Shown one piece after another: positions 25,456 through 36,826 of a stretch of 60,602 nucleotides of DNA. Made by a program: the position numbers and the translations under genes. The DNA comes from Chloroflexota bacterium (GTDB lineage: Bacteria; Chloroflexota; Limnocylindria; Limnocylindrales; CSP1-4), in NCBI GenBank assembly GCA_016200665.1, contig JACQEG010000073.1, positions 1 through 60,602 of the forward strand, written 5' to 3'. Every line of letters starts with the position of its first letter. Within the stretch, counting starts at the first letter, position 1. The notes under the pieces are model-generated. The model was not told the origin of the DNA. It saw only the letters and a program-made list of their open reading frames with translations, and ran no database searches.

Positions 25456-26880
25456 ATGCCCGCCGCAGCCGCCGCCCCGATCCCGGCCGGCCTTTGGTCC
25501 CCGGAGCGGCGAGGCCTGACGCTCGGGCTCGTCCTCACGATCACCCTCGTCGCGGCGGAGGCTCTCGCCGTGCCCACCGCGATGCCGATCGTCGCCCGCG
25601 ACCTCGGCGGCCTCGAGCTGTATGGCCTGGTCTTCTCGGGATTCTCGGTCGGGGCGCTGCTCGGGATCGTGGTCGTCGGCGCGCTCATCGACCGCGAGGG
25701 CGTCGTCCGGCCGTTCGTCGGCGGCCTGCTGCTGTTCGCGCTCGGGCTGACGATCGGCGGCCTCGCGCCGTCGATGCCGGTGCTCATCGGGGCCCGGTTC
25801 ATTCAGGGCATCGGCGGTGGGGCCATTCCGCCGGTCGCCTACGTCGCCATCGGCCGGGCCTTGCCGGAGAGCCTCCGGCCGCGGATGTTCGCCTACCTCT
25901 CGACGGCCTGGGTCCTGCCGGGGATCTTCGGGCCGGCGATCGCCGGGTTCGTCGCCCAGGAGCTGCACTGGCGGCTCGTGTTCCTCGGCCTGCTGCCGCT
26001 CATCGCCCTGCCCGGCGCGCTGGCGACGCGTGCCCTCGTGGTCCTCCACGAGGCCCATCCGCCGCGCGGCTCGGATCGCTCACTGCGGGCGCGCGCCGCC
26101 GAGGGCCTCGCGATCGCCATCGGCGTGACCCTCTTGACCGTCGCCCTCGAGACGGACCAGCCGCTCCTGACCGCCGGCCTGGGCGCGGCGGGTCTCGTCG
26201 TGACCCTCCTGCTCTTCCGCCGCCTCACGCCGCCGGGCACGCTGACCCTCGCTCCGGGCTACCCCTCGGCCGTCCTGCTGCGGGGCGTGCTCACCTTCGC
26301 CTTCTTCGCGGTCGATGCCTACGTGGCGCTGCTGCTGGTCGAGGTTCGCGGCTGGACGGCGACGGCGGCGGGCATCGCCCTGACCGCCGCGACGGTGTCG
26401 TGGACCGCGGGCTCGTGGGTCCAGGCCAGGCTCTCGGTCCGCTATCGGCCGGAGCGGTTCGTCCGGATCGGCTTCGTCATCGTCACGATCGGGATCGCCG
26501 GCCTCGGCCTGATCCTCGATCCCGCGGTCCCGGCCGAGCTGACGGTGCCGATCTTCGGGATCGCCGGCTTCGGGATGGGGCTGACCTACTCGCAGTTCGC
26601 CCTCATCGTCCTCCGAGACGTGCCCGGCCGAGGACAGGGCGCCGTGACCTCGGCGCTGACGCTCAGCGACACGATCGGGACCGCGCTCGGGCTCGGCGTG
26701 TCCGCGGCGATCGTCGCCGCTTCGTACCGCGCCACCGCCGGGCCCGGTCCGGGGATCGGTGGCGCGATCGCCCTGGGGGCGCTCGTCGCGGCGCTTGGCT
26801 TCGTCATGAGCTTCCGCCTGGGCGGCGGCACCCCGCGCGACGCCGCGACCTCCCGCGGCGCGGCAGGGGCGCTGGGGTAG
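25456..26880 (+). CDS. MFS transporter (DHA2-like, about 14 TM)
   Basis: GALIDREG motif A variant, LIGARFIQGIGGG, and many TM segments. Confidence 0.88.
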   Translation: MPAAAAAPIPAGLWSPERRGLTLGLVLTITLVAAEALAVPTAMPIVARDLGGLELYGLVFSGFSVGALLGIVVVGALIDREGVVRPFVGGLLLFALGLTIGGLAPSMPVLIGARFIQGIGGGAIPPVAYVAIGRALPESLRPRMFAYLSTAWVLPGIFGPAIAGFVAQELHWRLVFLGLLPLIALPGALATRALVVLHEAHPPRGSDRSLRARAAEGLAIAIGVTLLTVALETDQPLLTAGLGAAGLVVTLLLFRRLTPPGTLTLAPGYPSAVLLRGVLTFAFFAVDAYVALLLVEVRGWTATAAGIALTAATVSWTAGSWVQARLSVRYRPERFVRIGFVIVTIGIAGLGLILDPAVPAELTVPIFGIAGFGMGLTYSQFALIVLRDVPGRGQGAVTSALTLSDTIGTALGLGVSAAIVAASYRATAGPGPGIGGAIALGALVAALGFVMSFRLGGGTPRDAATSRGAAGALG

Positions 26881-26937: not shown

Positions 26938-27459
26938 GTGTCCGCCGAGGCCCTTCGGGCCAAGATCCGGGAGGTCCCGGACTTCCCGAAGCCCGGGATC
27001 CTGTTCTACGACATCACCACGCTCCTCAAGGACGCCGCCGCGTACCGCGAGTCGATCCAGCTGATGCTGGAGCCCCACAAGGGCGAGGGCATCGACCTCG
27101 TCGTGGGCATGGAATCCCGAGGGTTCATCTTCAGCGCGCCGATGGCGTACGAGCTGGGCGTCGGTCTCGTGCCCGTTCGGAAGCTCGGCAAGCTGCCGGC
27201 GGACACGGTGTCCGTCGAGTACGCCCTCGAGTACGGCTCGAACACCCTCGAGATCCACCGCGACGCGATCCAGCCGGGGCAGAAGGTCCTCATCGTCGAC
27301 GACCTGCTCGCGACGGGCGGCACGGTCCAGGGCACGATCGAGCTGGTCGAGCGGTTGAAGGGCGAGGTCGTCGGCCTGGCGTTCCTCGTCGAGCTCGACT
27401 TCCTCAAGGGCCGCGAGCGGCTGCAGGGCCGCCGCGTCACGAGCGTCATCCGCTATTGA
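26938..27459 (+). CDS. apt: Adenine phosphoribosyltransferase
   Basis: IREVPDFPKPGILFYDITTLL, ESRGF, RKLGKLP, LEYG, IVDDLLATGGT. SD AGGAGG. Confidence 0.96.
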   Translation: MSAEALRAKIREVPDFPKPGILFYDITTLLKDAAAYRESIQLMLEPHKGEGIDLVVGMESRGFIFSAPMAYELGVGLVPVRKLGKLPADTVSVEYALEYGSNTLEIHRDAIQPGQKVLIVDDLLATGGTVQGTIELVERLKGEVVGLAFLVELDFLKGRERLQGRRVTSVIRY

Positions 27460-27466
27460 CCCACCG

Positions 27467-28786
27467 TTGACGACGCCGGCCGATCCTTCGCGACGGGCGT
27501 TCTTCCGGCGGTTCGCCGGGGACCTCATCGCGTCCGCGGCCGAGGTGACCAAGGTCGTCAACGATCTCCGCGAGCAGTCCGCCTCCGAGGCGTCCACGCT
27601 CCTCCGCGAGGGCGGCGCGTTGCCCGAGGCGGGTGTCGCCGCACCGACCGGCTATCGCAGCCCGTTCCGGTTCGACGATGACGACCTCCTCGTCGTCGAC
27701 CAGCGTCGCCTGCCCGACGCGCTCGTCGAGCTGCCGGTCCGGAGCGCGCCCGAGGGCGCCCAGGCCATCCGCGACCAGGTCGTCCGCGGCGGCCCGGCGA
27801 TCGGCCAGGTCGCGGCGCTCGCGCTGGCCCTGACCGCCCGATCGGTCCGCCTGGCGCAGCCCTACGCCCGCCGCGCGATCCTGTTCGGCGCGACCAACGC
27901 GCTCCGGAACACCCGCACGACGCCGGTCAGCCTCGGCCGGGCCATGGATCGGATGATGACCCGCTATCGCGATGCCGGAGAGCTGTCCGAGGACGGCGAG
28001 GCGATCGCAGCCGCGCTCTGGGACGAGGCGATGGCGCTCGTCGCCGAGGCGACGGCGGCGCACGGCCGGATCGCCGATGCAGGGCTGGCCTTCCTCTCCT
28101 GGCCCGCGGATCGGCCACTCCAGGTCCTGACCCACGGCAACACGGGGCCGCTCTCGTCCGGCCAGTTCGGGACCGCGCTCGGGATCGTCCAGGCTGCCCA
28201 CCACGCCGAGCGCCCGATCCACGTCTGGGTCGCCGAGAGCCGGCCGGACCTGGCCGGCGCGCGGCTGACCGCGTGGGAGCTCGGCCAGAGTGGCGTCGAG
28301 CACACGCTCCTGGCCGACGGGGCCGCCGCGTCGATCATGGCCGACGGCCGGGTCGACCTCGTCCTCGTGGGGGCGGATCGGATCGCCGCCAACGGCGACA
28401 CGGCGAGCGACGTCGGCACCTATCCGCTGGCCGTCCTCGCCGCCCGCCACGGCGTCCCGCTCCACGTCGTGGCCCCGCTCGCCACGGTGGACCTCGCGAC
28501 GGCCGACGGTGCCTCGATCCCGATCGAGGGGCGGGCCGCGGAGGACGTGGCTGCCGTCCGCGGGATCCGGATGGCGCCGCTCGGCACCCACGTCTTCAAC
28601 CCGGCATCCGACGTGACGCCCGCGGACCTCGTGACCGCGTTCATCACCGACGCCGGGGTCCTGCGCCCGCCGTATGCGGCCTCGCTCCGGGCCGCCGTCG
28701 AGGCACGGCCGGGCCCCGGCGTCGCGGGGGCAGAGGCTGGAGCCGAGGCCGGCACGGGTGCCGGCGCCGGCGCGGGCGCCGCCTGA
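27467..28786 (+). CDS. MtnA/eIF2B-like family protein with a degenerate active site and an N-terminal extension
   Basis: DQRRLP, VRGGPAIG, FGTALG, ESRP..GARLTAWEL, VGADRIAANGD, FNPASDVTP match MtnA, but THGN replaces THCN and ASDVG replaces ANKIG. Confidence 0.85.
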   Translation: MTTPADPSRRAFFRRFAGDLIASAAEVTKVVNDLREQSASEASTLLREGGALPEAGVAAPTGYRSPFRFDDDDLLVVDQRRLPDALVELPVRSAPEGAQAIRDQVVRGGPAIGQVAALALALTARSVRLAQPYARRAILFGATNALRNTRTTPVSLGRAMDRMMTRYRDAGELSEDGEAIAAALWDEAMALVAEATAAHGRIADAGLAFLSWPADRPLQVLTHGNTGPLSSGQFGTALGIVQAAHHAERPIHVWVAESRPDLAGARLTAWELGQSGVEHTLLADGAAASIMADGRVDLVLVGADRIAANGDTASDVGTYPLAVLAARHGVPLHVVAPLATVDLATADGASIPIEGRAAEDVAAVRGIRMAPLGTHVFNPASDVTPADLVTAFITDAGVLRPPYAASLRAAVEARPGPGVAGAEAGAEAGTGAGAGAGAA

Positions 28787-28797
28787 CGAGGACGCCG

Positions 28798-29658
28798 ATG
28801 TCGACCGTCGCCATCCGGCGCGCCGAGGCTGGCCCAGTTGCGGCCACGACCCGCGATCGAGCCGTGCTGCGTGAGTTCCTCGAGCGCGACCGGCTCTTCG
28901 CCGCCTACGCGATCTGCGACCTCGACGAGCGGGAGTTCCCCCGCACCCGCTGGGCGCTTTCGCGCCAGGCCGACGAGGTCGTCGCGCTCGGCGTGTCGTA
29001 CGAGGGCAGCTCGCCGCAGCCGCTGCTCGTCATGGGCTCCGACGCCGGCATCCAGTCGATCCTGCGTGACGTCCTGCGGCCGCGGCTCGCCTACATCGCG
29101 GCGCTGCCGTCGAGCCTGCCCGCCGTCGGCCGCCGCTACCACCTCGACCCGGGGCCGGCGATGGTCCGGATGGCGGTGACAGCGGACCGGTTCCGGCCCG
29201 TGGAGGATCCGGGCGTGGAGCGACTGTCGCCCCTCGACACGCCGGAGCTCAACCGCCTCTATCGCCTCGGCTTCGGGTCGTGGCTGCCGAGCCAGGCCGT
29301 CGTCGAGGGCGTCTACTACGGCCTTCGGATCCGGAACCGGCTCGTTGCCGCGGCCGGCACGCACATCGTGAGCCGGGATGCCCGGCTGGCCGTCGTCGGC
29401 AACGTCATGACGGCGGCCGAGTTCCGAGGCCACGGCTACGCGAAGGCGGTCACGGCCGCGGTCACCGCCGAGCTGCTGGGTTTCTGCGACGATGTCGTCC
29501 TCAACGTCCGGGCCGACAACCCACCCGCCCTGAACGCCTATCGCCGGATCGGCTACGTCGAGCACGTCCGATACGAGGAGCGGCTCGCGCGGCGCACGGG
29601 CTCCCTGCTCGGTGAGATCGGGGCGGCGCTCCGCCGCCGCCTCCTACCCGGAGACTGA
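28798..29658 (+). CDS. GNAT family N-acetyltransferase (C-terminal GNAT, N-terminal accessory domain)
   Basis: VGNVMTAAEFRGHGYAKAV acetyl-CoA motif; N..ALNAYRRIGY. Confidence 0.85.
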   Translation: MSTVAIRRAEAGPVAATTRDRAVLREFLERDRLFAAYAICDLDEREFPRTRWALSRQADEVVALGVSYEGSSPQPLLVMGSDAGIQSILRDVLRPRLAYIAALPSSLPAVGRRYHLDPGPAMVRMAVTADRFRPVEDPGVERLSPLDTPELNRLYRLGFGSWLPSQAVVEGVYYGLRIRNRLVAAAGTHIVSRDARLAVVGNVMTAAEFRGHGYAKAVTAAVTAELLGFCDDVVLNVRADNPPALNAYRRIGYVEHVRYEERLARRTGSLLGEIGAALRRRLLPGD

Positions 29659-29684
29659 CCGCCACATGACGACCGCCACATGAC
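29657..29684. repeat. Perfect 14-bp tandem duplication spanning the ahcY start
   Basis: gaccgccacatgac occurs twice, at 29657-29670 and 29671-29684. Confidence 0.9.
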
Positions 29685-30954
29685 GACCGACACGACCGCC
29701 TCGCACGACGTCACGGATCTCGGCCTCGCCGCCGAGGGCCTCCGCCGGATCGAGTGGGCCGAGCGAGAGATGCCCGTCCTCCGGACGATCCGGACCCGCT
29801 TCGAGCGCGAGCGGCCGCTGGCCGGGGTGCGGATCGGGGCGTGCCTGCACGTGACGACCGAGACGGCCAACCTCATGCGAACCCTGGCGGCCGGTGGAGC
29901 CGAGGTCACGCTCGCGGCGTCGAATCCGCTCTCGACCCAGGACGACGTCGCGGCGGCGCTCGTGTCCGAGTTCGGGATCCCGGTCCACGCCCGGCGCGGC
30001 GAGGACCGCGACACCTACTACCGGCATCTGAACGCCGTGGCCGACGCCCACCCCGCGGTGACGATGGACGACGGCTGCGACCTCGTATCGTTGCTGCACC
30101 AGGACCGGCCAGGCCAGGTCCGCGAGGTCACGGGCGGGACCGAGGAGACGACGACCGGCGTCATCCGCCTCCGGGCGATGGCCGCCGACGCGGCCCTCGG
30201 CTATCCGGTCATCGCGGTCAACGAGGCCCAGACCAAGCACCTCTTCGACAACCGCTACGGGACCGGCCAGTCGACACTCGACGGGATCCTCCGGGCGACG
30301 AATCTCCTCATCGCCGGACGGAACGTCGTCATCGCCGGCTACGGCTGGGTCGGTCGAGGGATCGCGATGCGGATGGCCGGCCACGGCGCCCACGTCGCGA
30401 TCGTCGAGGTGGATCCCGTCCGGGCGCTCGAGGCGCTCATGGACGGCTACCAGGTCATGACGGTTGGGACCGCCGCGCCATGGGGCGATCTCTTCATCAC
30501 GGCCACCGGCAACGTCAACGTCTTCCGGCGCGAGCACTTCGCGGCGATGAAGGAGGGCGCCGTCATGGCCAACAGCGGCCACTTCGACGCCGAGCTGGAT
30601 CTCGCCGCGCTGCGCGAGATGGCGGAGGGCCACGTCCGCGACGTGCGCAGGGACGTCCAGGAGTTCGATCTCGGTGGCAAGCGGGTGAATCTCGTGGCCG
30701 AGGGCCGGCTCGTCAACCTCGGCGCGGCGGAGGGCCATCCGGCCGCGGTCATGGACATGAGCTTCGCCAACCAGGCGCTCGCGGTCGAGTACGTGCTCGC
30801 CCACCACGCCGAGCTCGAACACCAGGTCTACGGCGTGCCGGAGGCGATCGATGCGGAGGTCGCCCGATTGAAGCTCGCGGCCTTCGGCATCACGCTCGAC
30901 GCCATGACGCCGGAGCAGGCCGAGTACGTCGCCTCATGGAAGCACGGCACGTGA
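29680..30954 (+). CDS. ahcY: S-adenosyl-L-homocysteine hydrolase (short type)
   Basis: [65 protein letters not shown]. Confidence 0.97.
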
Positions 30955-35552: not shown

Positions 35553-35560
35553 CGATGGGC

Positions 35561-35594
35561 AGTCTAGGGGGCCGCTCCGGCTCGGTGGTAGGCT
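35561..35594. promoter_or_regulatory. Divergent -10 hexamers (TAGACT on minus for kynU, TAGGCT on plus for metK), each 8 nt from its ATG
   Basis: 50-bp intergenic gap with no SD on either side. Confidence 0.55.
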
Positions 35595-35602
35595 CGCCCG
35601 CA

Positions 35603-36826
35603 ATGACCAGCATCGTCGACGCCGCGGAGTACCTGTTCACGTCCGAGTCGGTCACCGAGGGCCACCCGGACAAGATGTGCGACCAGATCAGCGACGCGAT
35701 CCTGGACGCGATCATCCGCGAGGATCCCGACGCCCGGGTGGCCTGCGAGACGGCGACGACGACCGGCCTCGTCGTGGTCCTCGGCGAGATCACGACGACG
35801 ACGTACGTCGACTTCCAGGCGGTCGTCCGGGAGACGGTCCGCGACATCGGCTACACCCGGTCCGACTACGGCTTCGACTACGAGACCTGCGGCACCCTCA
35901 TCTCGGTCAAGGAGCAGTCGCCTGACATCAAGATGGGCGTCGACGCGGCGCTCGAGGTCCGGGGCGAGAAGGTCGCCGTCGAGGAGCTCGGGGCCGGCGA
36001 CCAGGGAATGATGTTCGGCTACGCCTGCCGCGAGACCCCCGAGCTCATGCCGCTGCCGATCGCGCTGGCCCACCGGATGGCGCGCCGCCTGGCGGACGCC
36101 CGCAAGTCGGGCCAGCTGCCGTACCTCCGACCGGACGGCAAGACCCAGATCACCGTCGAGTACGCGAACGGCACGCCCGTCGCGGTCAGGACCGTCGTCG
36201 TCGCGGCGCAGCACGATCCCGACGTCCGGCTCGACCACCTGCGCGACGACCTCATCGAGGCGGTCGTCCTGCCCACGATCCCGCGGAACCTCCGCCCGAA
36301 GGACCCGATCATCCATGTCAACCCGACGGGCCGGTTCGTCGTCGGCGGGCCGATGGGCGACGCCGGGCTGACCGGGCGGAAGATCATCGTCGACTCGTAC
36401 GGCGGGATGGCCCGCCATGGCGGCGGCTGCTTCTCCGGCAAGGACCCGACGAAGGTCGACCGTTCCGGGGCGTATGCCGCGCGGTGGGTCGCCAAGAACG
36501 TCGTCGCGGCCGGCCTCGCCGATCGCTTCGAGCTCGAGATCGCGTACGGGATCGGGATCGCCCACCCCGTGTCGCTGTCGATCGAGACGTTCGGCACGGG
36601 GCACGTCGACGACGAGCTGATCCTGGAGCTCATCAGGCGCCATTTCGACCTGCGGCCGGCGTTCATCATCGCGGCGCTCGATCTCCGCCGGGCGATCTAC
36701 CGCCAGACAGCGACCTACGGCCACTTCGGCCGGCCGGACCTCGACCTGCCGTGGGAGCGGACCGACAAGGCGGCCCTCCTCGCCGCCGAGGCCGGGGTCG
36801 CGCTGCCCGAGCCGCTCGCGGTCTGA
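35603..36826 (+). CDS. metK: S-adenosylmethionine synthetase
   Basis: [61 protein letters not shown]. Confidence 0.98.

Follow-up and report, generated by a model that had tools for sequence, protein, structure and literature searches.

The MtnA-like gene and its active site

The DNA analysed here (the window) is a stretch of 60,602 nucleotides, positions 1 to 60,602 of contig JACQEG010000073.1 in the Chloroflexota assembly GCA_016200665.1 (lineage Limnocylindrales; this assembly is denoted G000). At 27467..28786 on the + strand, it carries an open reading frame (ORF) of 439 aa with a TTG start, which encodes an N-terminally extended protein resembling MtnA, the methylthioribose-1-phosphate (MTR-1-P) isomerase, with a non-canonical active site; this ORF and its orthologues are referred to as X. 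Its predicted architecture, with per-residue confidence given as the predicted local distance difference test (pLDDT), consists of a long amphipathic helix in the extension (residues 7-48, 27485..27610, +; AlphaFold2 pLDDT 70-80) that bears the hallmark motif RRAFFRRF (residues 9-16, 27491..27514, +), a Gly/Ala/Pro-rich linker (residues 49-66, 27611..27664, +; pLDDT ~57) that joins the helix to the MtnA fold and differs in both length and sequence from homologue to homologue, and the MtnA/eIF2B-type fold itself (residues 67-413, 27665..28705, +; supported by PF01008, pLDDT >94 and Foldseek). The C-terminal tail (28706-28783) is a low-complexity Gly/Ala/Glu stretch (…GAEAGAEAGTGAGAGAGAA) of low pLDDT, the length of which varies among relatives.

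The ORF matched PF01008 over residues 106-401 (E-value 4e-62) and scored 334.5 bits against TIGR00512, the NCBIfam equivalog model for MtnA, for which the cut-off is 279; because this score exceeds the cut-off, annotation pipelines would label X as MtnA. The match to TIGR00511, the model for ribose-1,5-bisphosphate (R15P) isomerase, was weaker (137 bits, cut-off 314). The AlphaFold2 model of X, for which 90 homologues served as input, had a mean pLDDT of 91.4 and was matched by Foldseek to the MtnA structures 2YRF/2YVK/1T9K with template-modelling (TM) scores of 0.93-0.95 and root-mean-square deviations (rmsd) of 1.7-2.2 Å; on Bacillus subtilis MtnA the model superposed with a TM score of 0.95 and an rmsd of 1.7 Å. 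X was the single PF01008 gene in G000 (2.37 Mb, 82% complete): a second, canonical mtnA, which an earlier prediction made from the letters of this stretch alone (the original prediction) had proposed looking for, was not found in the assembly.

In B. subtilis MtnA, Cys160 and Asp240 are the catalytic residues and Arg51, Arg94, Gln199 and Lys251 the phosphate ligands; this numbering reportedly goes back to work by Tamura and colleagues from 2008. Alignment of X to the solved MtnAs 1T9K, 6A34 and 2YRF/2YVK placed the departures in four motifs on the + strand: i) THGN stands for THCN, the catalytic Cys (Cys160) being replaced by Gly224 (codon GGC, 28136..28138); ii) ESRPDLAG (28235..28258) stands for ETRPYLQG, with Tyr changed to Asp and the 1-phosphate ligand Gln199 changed to Ala263; iii) GDTASDVG stands for GDTANKIG, so that Ser314-Asp315 (28406..28411) occupy the places of Asn250 and Lys251, the latter a ligand of both the 1-phosphate and the sugar; iv) RTTPVSL (27914..27934) stands for RPTAxNL, with Arg150 (Arg94) kept and P151T, A153P and N155S changed. 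The second catalytic residue was retained as Asp304 (Asp240; GADRIA, 28376..28378, +), and both phosphate-site Arg were present, R107 (Arg51) and R150 (Arg94). Ligand roles in X were assigned from the structure of the homologous R15P isomerase (PMC5789824), a paralogous enzyme in which Cys135 and Asp204 are catalytic, the C135S mutant is inactive, and the 1-phosphate is held by Arg22, Arg65, Gln166 and Lys215. On this assignment two of the four 1-phosphate ligands are kept in X (Arg107 and Arg150) and two are lost (Gln to Ala263 and Lys to Asp315). The alignments thus bore out what the original prediction had read from the sequence: the Cys-to-Gly change at 28136-28138, the Gln-to-Ala and Lys-to-Asp changes, the retained Asp and both Arg, and the codon positions of the THGN and ASDVG changes.

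The extent of the departure was gauged against 70 positions that were at least 90% identical in both short (n=109) and extended (n=34) canonical MtnAs (143 sequences). X departs at 11 of them: A109G, P151T, A153P, N155S, C224G, A230S, Q263A, N314S, K315D, E360D and F381S. The nearest canonical relative (P0006, ~70% identical to X) departs at none of the 70, other canonical relatives depart at 0-3, and the catalytic Cys is invariant (100%) in the 143 canonical sequences. Asp304, Glu257, Asp382 and both Arg remain in X. As judged from these alignments, X is without the canonical catalytic and phosphate-binding set, and the canonical MtnA reaction is predicted to be lost.

The original prediction had argued that the change of NKI to SDV, which needs several base substitutions, is not a single sequencing error. 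A sequencing or assembly error behind the substitutions is excluded because Logan contigs from two groundwater-metagenome runs carry the X gene with 0 differences and independent contigs of other samples show the same substitutions. An apparent polymorphism at 28407-28412 was also rejected, the variant letters being short pieces of the canonical MtnA (ANKIG) of other community members.

Loss of catalytic residues across the family

Among the best 120 database homologues of X, 105 were canonical. In a FastTree phylogeny, X fell in a nine-member clade (support 88) with three subclades: X with P0003, P0004 and P0005; P0007 with P0008; and P0014, P0026 and P0116. Gly takes the place of Cys in nine of nine members, while the Asn-Lys site reads SD, ND, GA, GV or AV and the Gln site A, T, V or E. 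Of the two changes whose fixation among homologues the original prediction had left to be checked, that of Cys to Gly was therefore uniform within the clade and that of Lys to Asp was not. The ORF is intact in all nine sequences (66-86% identity) and the N-terminal motif nearly identical. The losses are shared by the nearest relatives of X (84-86% identity) as well as by further ones (66-70%).

Selection on X was estimated as dN/dS by the Nei-Gojobori method, with only close pairs used because dS is near saturation in distant pairs. Pairs within the loss-sharing subclades gave 0.199 (WIN-L039), 0.206 (WIN-L040) and 0.213 (L041-L038), similarly close canonical pairs gave 0.18-0.19, and pairs inside old non-canonical lineages gave 0.20-0.33. 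Since dN/dS among members of these loss-sharing clades is ~0.2, as it is for canonical MtnA, X is not a neutrally drifting relic and is kept under purifying selection. With the losses shared by relatives and dN/dS at this level, the strain-specific decay that the original prediction had set against its own reading was not found. The branch leading to X is ~2-2.5 times as long as the canonical sister branch.

In a tree of 141 close relatives, Cys changed to Gly at least six independent times, the replacement being Gly in 15 of 15 cases, and there were at least four losses of Lys. In several sequences the active site is otherwise canonical: Cys-to-Gly is the sole change in P0057, P0113 and P0121, and is joined by Asn-to-Ser in P0033 and by Lys-to-Arg in P0046. 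These sequences may represent first-step intermediates. That several of them have Cys-to-Gly only suggests that this change is the usual first step of the conversion.

A full HMMER search was also run on representatives clustered at 50% identity, 1.84 billion in number, and yielded 150 best matches. Among these, the short representatives of the expected length (330-400 aa) read RRP-HCN-ET-Q-D-NK-FD and are canonical, and ~30 of the 37 that carry the RRxFFRxF extension are non-canonical, mostly with Cys changed to Gly, Asn-Lys and Gln lost, and Asp often replaced by Glu; P0155, P0156, P0157, P0159 and P0197 are non-canonical yet have no RR motif. Named members of the family are metagenome-assembled genomes of Candidatus Limnocylindrales or Chloroflexota, and their proteins are annotated as MtnA in IMG and NCBI.

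How the states of X are distributed was read from 70 loci, after 301 class genomes had been searched with PF01008. X is canonical in genera g1, g5, g9, g11 and g22. In g3, g7 and part of g4, a non-canonical X coexists with a separate short canonical MtnA, which typically adjoins a class II aldolase; two PF01008 copies, some of them read, were also present in g12 (G115), g24 (G296) and g8 (G073). Genera g10, g17 and g18, together with the other members of g4, g12 and g24, have a non-canonical X only. In genus g6 (L119-L121), X is absent from an otherwise intact locus, GNAT following apt after ~85-105 bp, and this loss is a clean deletion. The sister family f2 (genomes of 1.0-1.4 Mb; G025-G028, L113-L116) keeps the apt-X-GNAT arrangement with an X of ~400 aa that has an RRSFLRSI... 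helix, is 26-29% identical to the window protein and to the canonical P0118, shows no recognisable active-site motif and lies under the detection level of PF01008. On the evidence of these sequences, the extended MtnA-like family spans a Limnocylindrales-like order and has lost its catalytic residues many times independently.

Every extension-bearing copy was found in the apt-X-GNAT-ahcY locus in the 70 loci read. Two second, out-of-locus extended copies were also noted: L106 (G079:C24) is very divergent, with a long branch, and L117 (G090:C14), probably a decayed paralogue, seems truncated or frameshifted after ~240 residues.

The N-terminal helix and the conserved locus

The N-terminal extension, put at ~60 aa in the original prediction, proved to be real, ~66 aa long and common to the homologues, which share the start position with ATG, GTG or TTG as the codon. 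It is modelled as an amphipathic helix, because a hydrophobic residue recurs every 3-4 positions across ~34 residues with conserved acidic or polar residues between. Conservation was compared among 59 non-canonical extended, 34 canonical extended and 109 short canonical sequences. R9, R10, F12, F13, R14 and F16 of the helix were 92-100% conserved in both the catalytic and the non-catalytic extended groups. Moreover, R68, R80, Q114, R135, A181 and G232 in the body of the protein were conserved in both extended groups and not in short MtnA; R68, R80, Q114, R135 and G232 are all present in the window protein and 86-100% conserved across the two groups. The N-terminal helix is the feature that the family conserves best.

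The pocket, in contrast, was the least conserved part of the 59 non-canonical members, the majority residue reaching only 19% at position 315 and 20% at 381. Constraint was lost in this group at R107, A109, I112, G113, T152, A153, N155, L156, N225, Q263, T268, D304, R305, A313, N314, K315, T318, I351, I353, E360, N378, F381 and T384. At position 224, 93% of the non-canonical members have Gly, and the position of Asp304 is Glu in 47%.

The extension had no significant match among Pfam, NCBIfam or PDB sequences. The RRxFFRxF motif occurs once in G000, and a hidden Markov model (HMM) of the extension, run on 401 Chloroflexota genomes, found only the X genes of families f1 and f2, plus three marginal matches; a shared targeting peptide was rejected on these grounds.

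X lies in an island ordered luciferase-like monooxygenase (- strand), MFS transporter (25456..26880, +), apt, X, GNAT, ahcY, S9 peptidase, kynureninase-like aminotransferase (- strand) and metK. The MFS transporter gene is a conserved upstream member of the locus. The adenine phosphoribosyltransferase gene apt (26938..27459, +; NF002636, 237 bits) ends 7 nt before X and is syntenic in all relatives. Directly downstream of X is a GNAT acetyltransferase gene of FR47-like type (28792..29658, +), followed by ahcY for S-adenosylhomocysteine hydrolase (29680..30954, +; TIGR00936, 612 bits); metK for S-adenosylmethionine (SAM) synthetase (35555..36826, +) belongs to the same island, an arrangement repeated in relatives. 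Of 24 congeneric species-representative genomes, 22 have a single homologue, which in every case reads THCN, ETRP[YW]LQG and AN[KQ] and lies in the order MFS-apt-X-GNAT-ahcY. Because the canonical MtnA of the congeners occupies this same arrangement, X is its positional orthologue; in the DNA of five relatives from the non-canonical clade, synteny was likewise unchanged. The GNAT was rejected as a dedicated partner of X, since its orthologues occur in 294 of the 301 class genomes, lineages without X included. Its N-terminal half (~170 aa), in a gene that always adjoins apt, X and ahcY, falls outside the FR47-like assignment.

As for the surrounding pathway, methylthioadenosine (MTA) phosphorylase is present in G000 (C52, 294 bits), and no class II aldolase gene (PF00596) was found in the assembly. 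Among congeners, 14 of 15 have a single class II aldolase, sited with an ABC ATPase gene on one side and a MIP channel gene on the other. On G000 contig C93 (3286-5217) both flanking genes lie ~340 bp apart with no aldolase remnant (compare L034:7620-10340), and the loss of the aldolase at this syntenic site is a real, clean deletion. The aldolase of the congeners scores below every NCBIfam cut-off and is a putative partner of MtnA. Aldolase presence was dropped as a family-wide proxy of pathway loss because it carried no information: paralogues are numerous, aldolases occur in g6 in the absence of X, and an aldolase is missing from two congeners whose MtnA is canonical. A second PNP-type phosphorylase and thyX, both aldolase-adjacent in relatives, are also absent from G000; this is most likely an assembly gap, since their expected place lies past the end of contig C93, and was not used as evidence.

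A putative pseudoenzyme and its alternatives

We consider it rather probable that X is a pseudoenzyme kept for a non-isomerase role linked to its extension, parallel to the regulatory subunits of eIF2B. X would descend from a working MTR-1-P isomerase, would no longer be able to run the canonical MtnA reaction, and would be retained by selection for a second, non-isomerase role common to all family members. In many lineages the active site has been dismantled (Cys changed to Gly, the Gln and Lys phosphate ligands lost, ~25 normally invariant pocket positions relaxed), with the helix motif, the family-specific body residues and the fold staying conserved where the catalytic site was lost (dN/dS 0.2-0.3); the lineage of the window is one recent, independent instance of this transition. 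The retained role may depend on the helix, through protein-protein or possibly membrane contact. What is left of the sugar pocket may be relevant too, E257, D304 and D382 being kept here and R150 in most members. In that case X could serve in the handling of SAM by-products as a subunit that senses a ligand or provides a scaffold, much as eIF2B alpha/beta/delta arose from the same fold. The organism itself probably no longer isomerises MTR-1-P or 5-deoxyribose-1-phosphate, and MTA phosphorylase and Apt would presumably still recover adenine. A more specific version, in which the extended homologues are moonlighting regulatory or scaffold subunits whose helix docks a partner while the old pocket senses a ligand, as a bacterial counterpart of eIF2B, is tentative and in our view rather doubtful.

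Comparison with the known members of the fold puts the proposal in context. Relative to MtnA (M1Pi, EC 5.3.1.23; 2YRF/2YVK, 1T9K from T. maritima and 6A34 from P. horikoshii), X has the same fold at 34-37% identity and keeps the equivalents of Asp240, Arg51 and Arg94; it differs in Cys160 to Gly, Gln199 to Ala and Asn250-Lys251 to Ser-Asp, in altered RPTAxNL and NPAFD motifs, and in the additional 66-aa N-terminal helix and linker. R15P isomerase (T. kodakarensis 3A11/3VM6, P. horikoshii 5YFJ) shares the fold with X and has the same Cys/Asp pair and Arg/Arg/Gln/Lys site as MtnA, whereas X is without the Cys, Gln and Lys. eIF2B's alpha, beta and delta subunits, non-catalytic eukaryotic pseudoenzymes of PF01008, belong to the same fold family as X at an identity of only 20-22%. 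In eIF2B-alpha the Cys position is Gly (S. pombe) or Ala (human) and the 1-phosphate ligands are absent (PMC5789824); X is similar in having a small residue for the catalytic Cys and in having lost 1-phosphate ligands, two of the four in its case, so the comparison with eIF2B drawn in the original prediction was apt. The remnant pocket of eIF2B alpha binds sugar phosphates, to go by the titles of PDB entries 7KMF and 7KMA. Unlike eIF2B, X occurs in bacteria, which have no gamma/epsilon partners and no translation role for X; its inactivation is independent, recent and repeated, and its N-terminal RRxFFRxF helix is unrelated. PF01008 pseudoenzymes are thus known (eIF2B), and the X family, bacterial and with a new conserved N-terminal element, is undescribed; full-text literature searches on MtnA pseudoenzymes and on methionine salvage in Limnocylindria found nothing.

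"Pseudo-enzyme or altered-ligand protein", the wording of the original prediction, fits what was found, in that the canonical machinery is gone and selection keeps the protein, and its second half calls for weighing. X might be a retooled enzyme that takes a new substrate into the old pocket, probably a non-phosphorylated or cationic one (a nucleoside, methylthioribose, 5-deoxyribose or an amino sugar), with the chemistry run by Asp304 and one new acidic residue (Asp261 or Asp315). The retention of Asp304, Glu257, Asp382 and both Arg would suit such an enzyme, as would the two new pocket Asp of the window and P0007/P0008 subclades, the Glu that the P0014/P0026/P0116 subclade has in place of Gln, and the persistence of purifying selection. 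However, the subclades differ from one another (SD, ND, GA, GV, AV or ST at Asn-Lys; A, T, V or E at Gln), no common base is visible that would replace Cys, and Asp304 itself is Glu in nearly half of the members (47%); the proposal is weakened by the pocket being less conserved than any other part of the 59 non-canonical members, and we regard it as unlikely. A working MTR-1-P isomerase with a Cys-independent mechanism, for example a hydride shift, appears highly improbable: the Cys is invariant in 143 of 143 canonical sequences, the paralogous isomerase is inactive once its Cys is mutated to Ser (PMC5789824), and ten further conserved pocket residues are changed, the phosphate-binding Lys (to Asp) among them, although X scores above the TIGR00512 equivalog cut-off, keeps Asp304 and both Arg, and has relatives with Cys-to-Gly as the sole change (P0057, P0113, P0121) or nearly so (P0033).

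That X is a decaying relic, its salvage branch lost and the gene drifting towards the deletion seen in g6, with the ORF intact since the loss is recent, would be consistent with the deleted aldolase in the same genome, the ~2-2.5-fold branch length and the deletion in g6 itself; the dN/dS of ~0.2 in loss-sharing clades largely refutes this, and with ORFs intact in nine of nine variant-clade sequences, a nearly identical N-terminal motif, and X retained in far older non-canonical lineages and in streamlined genomes, we hold decay to be very unlikely. The consensus of twin-arginine translocation (Tat) signals is S/T-RRxFLK, which the RRxFF(R) of the extension resembles, and the extension could accordingly be read as a Tat signal or signal-anchor that makes X an exported or membrane-tethered binding protein. 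In typical members ~16 uncharged residues, rich in Ala, Gly and Thr, do precede an R-x-S-A, TIGR02811 formate_TAT is matched weakly and below threshold (E-values 0.03-0.05, 14 bits where the cut-off is 48), and TatC was present in 12 of 12 genomes tested. But at an E-value limit of 10 there was no match to TAT_signal of Pfam or to the general Tat-signal model of NCBIfam, an Asp or Glu is conserved 3 residues past the motif, and the would-be h-region is broken by Asp19, Glu26, Lys29 and Asp33 in the window protein (Glu26, Lys29 and Asp33 clade-wide). Hydrophobic residues are moreover spaced periodically over ~34 residues and do not form a uniform core, AlphaFold2 gives one continuous 42-residue helix, and the substrate of the canonical members is a cytoplasmic phosphosugar, all of which make a Tat signal or signal-anchor quite unlikely.

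Several observations weigh against the pseudoenzyme reading as well: i) with Asp304, Glu257 and both Arg still in place, X may bind sugar phosphates to some degree or carry out a different chemistry; ii) dS saturates near 0.6-0.7 for distant pairs, and close pairs alone are informative; iii) a second MtnA could sit in the unassembled part, since G000 is 82% complete; iv) no partner of the helix was identified, the adjacent GNAT being equally frequent without X; v) the presence of class II aldolase does not follow the state of X across the family; vi) the clean deletion of X in genus g6 makes the retained role dispensable in some backgrounds.

If X is indeed a retained pseudoenzyme, the family would show an enzyme-to-pseudoenzyme transition in progress and repeated many times, with every stage side by side: the active enzyme, Cys-to-Gly only, the dismantled pocket, an X down to 26-29% identity, and deletion. 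It would offer many independent, datable conversions with the same first step (Cys-to-Gly), with active and inactive orthologues at one locus in sister species, and thus a natural experiment on the way in which MtnA/R15P-isomerase-type enzymes could have given rise to regulatory subunits of the eIF2B type. With the RRxFFRxF helix better conserved than the active site, its binding partner should reveal the second job. Moreover, the salvage of methionine or 5'-deoxyadenosine is probably over-predicted for this Chloroflexota order, which is widespread in groundwater, soil and freshwater, because the proteins pass the NCBI cut-off for MtnA and are so named in IMG and NCBI.

Some genomes with a non-canonical X also encode a separate short canonical MtnA, its gene directly adjoining that of a class II aldolase (G298:C8:21264-22738, G062:C10:5662-7211, G226:C72:5246-6747 and G214:C8:627760-629261). 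The two genes are likely a working pair for salvage or for the dihydroxyacetone phosphate (DHAP) shunt.

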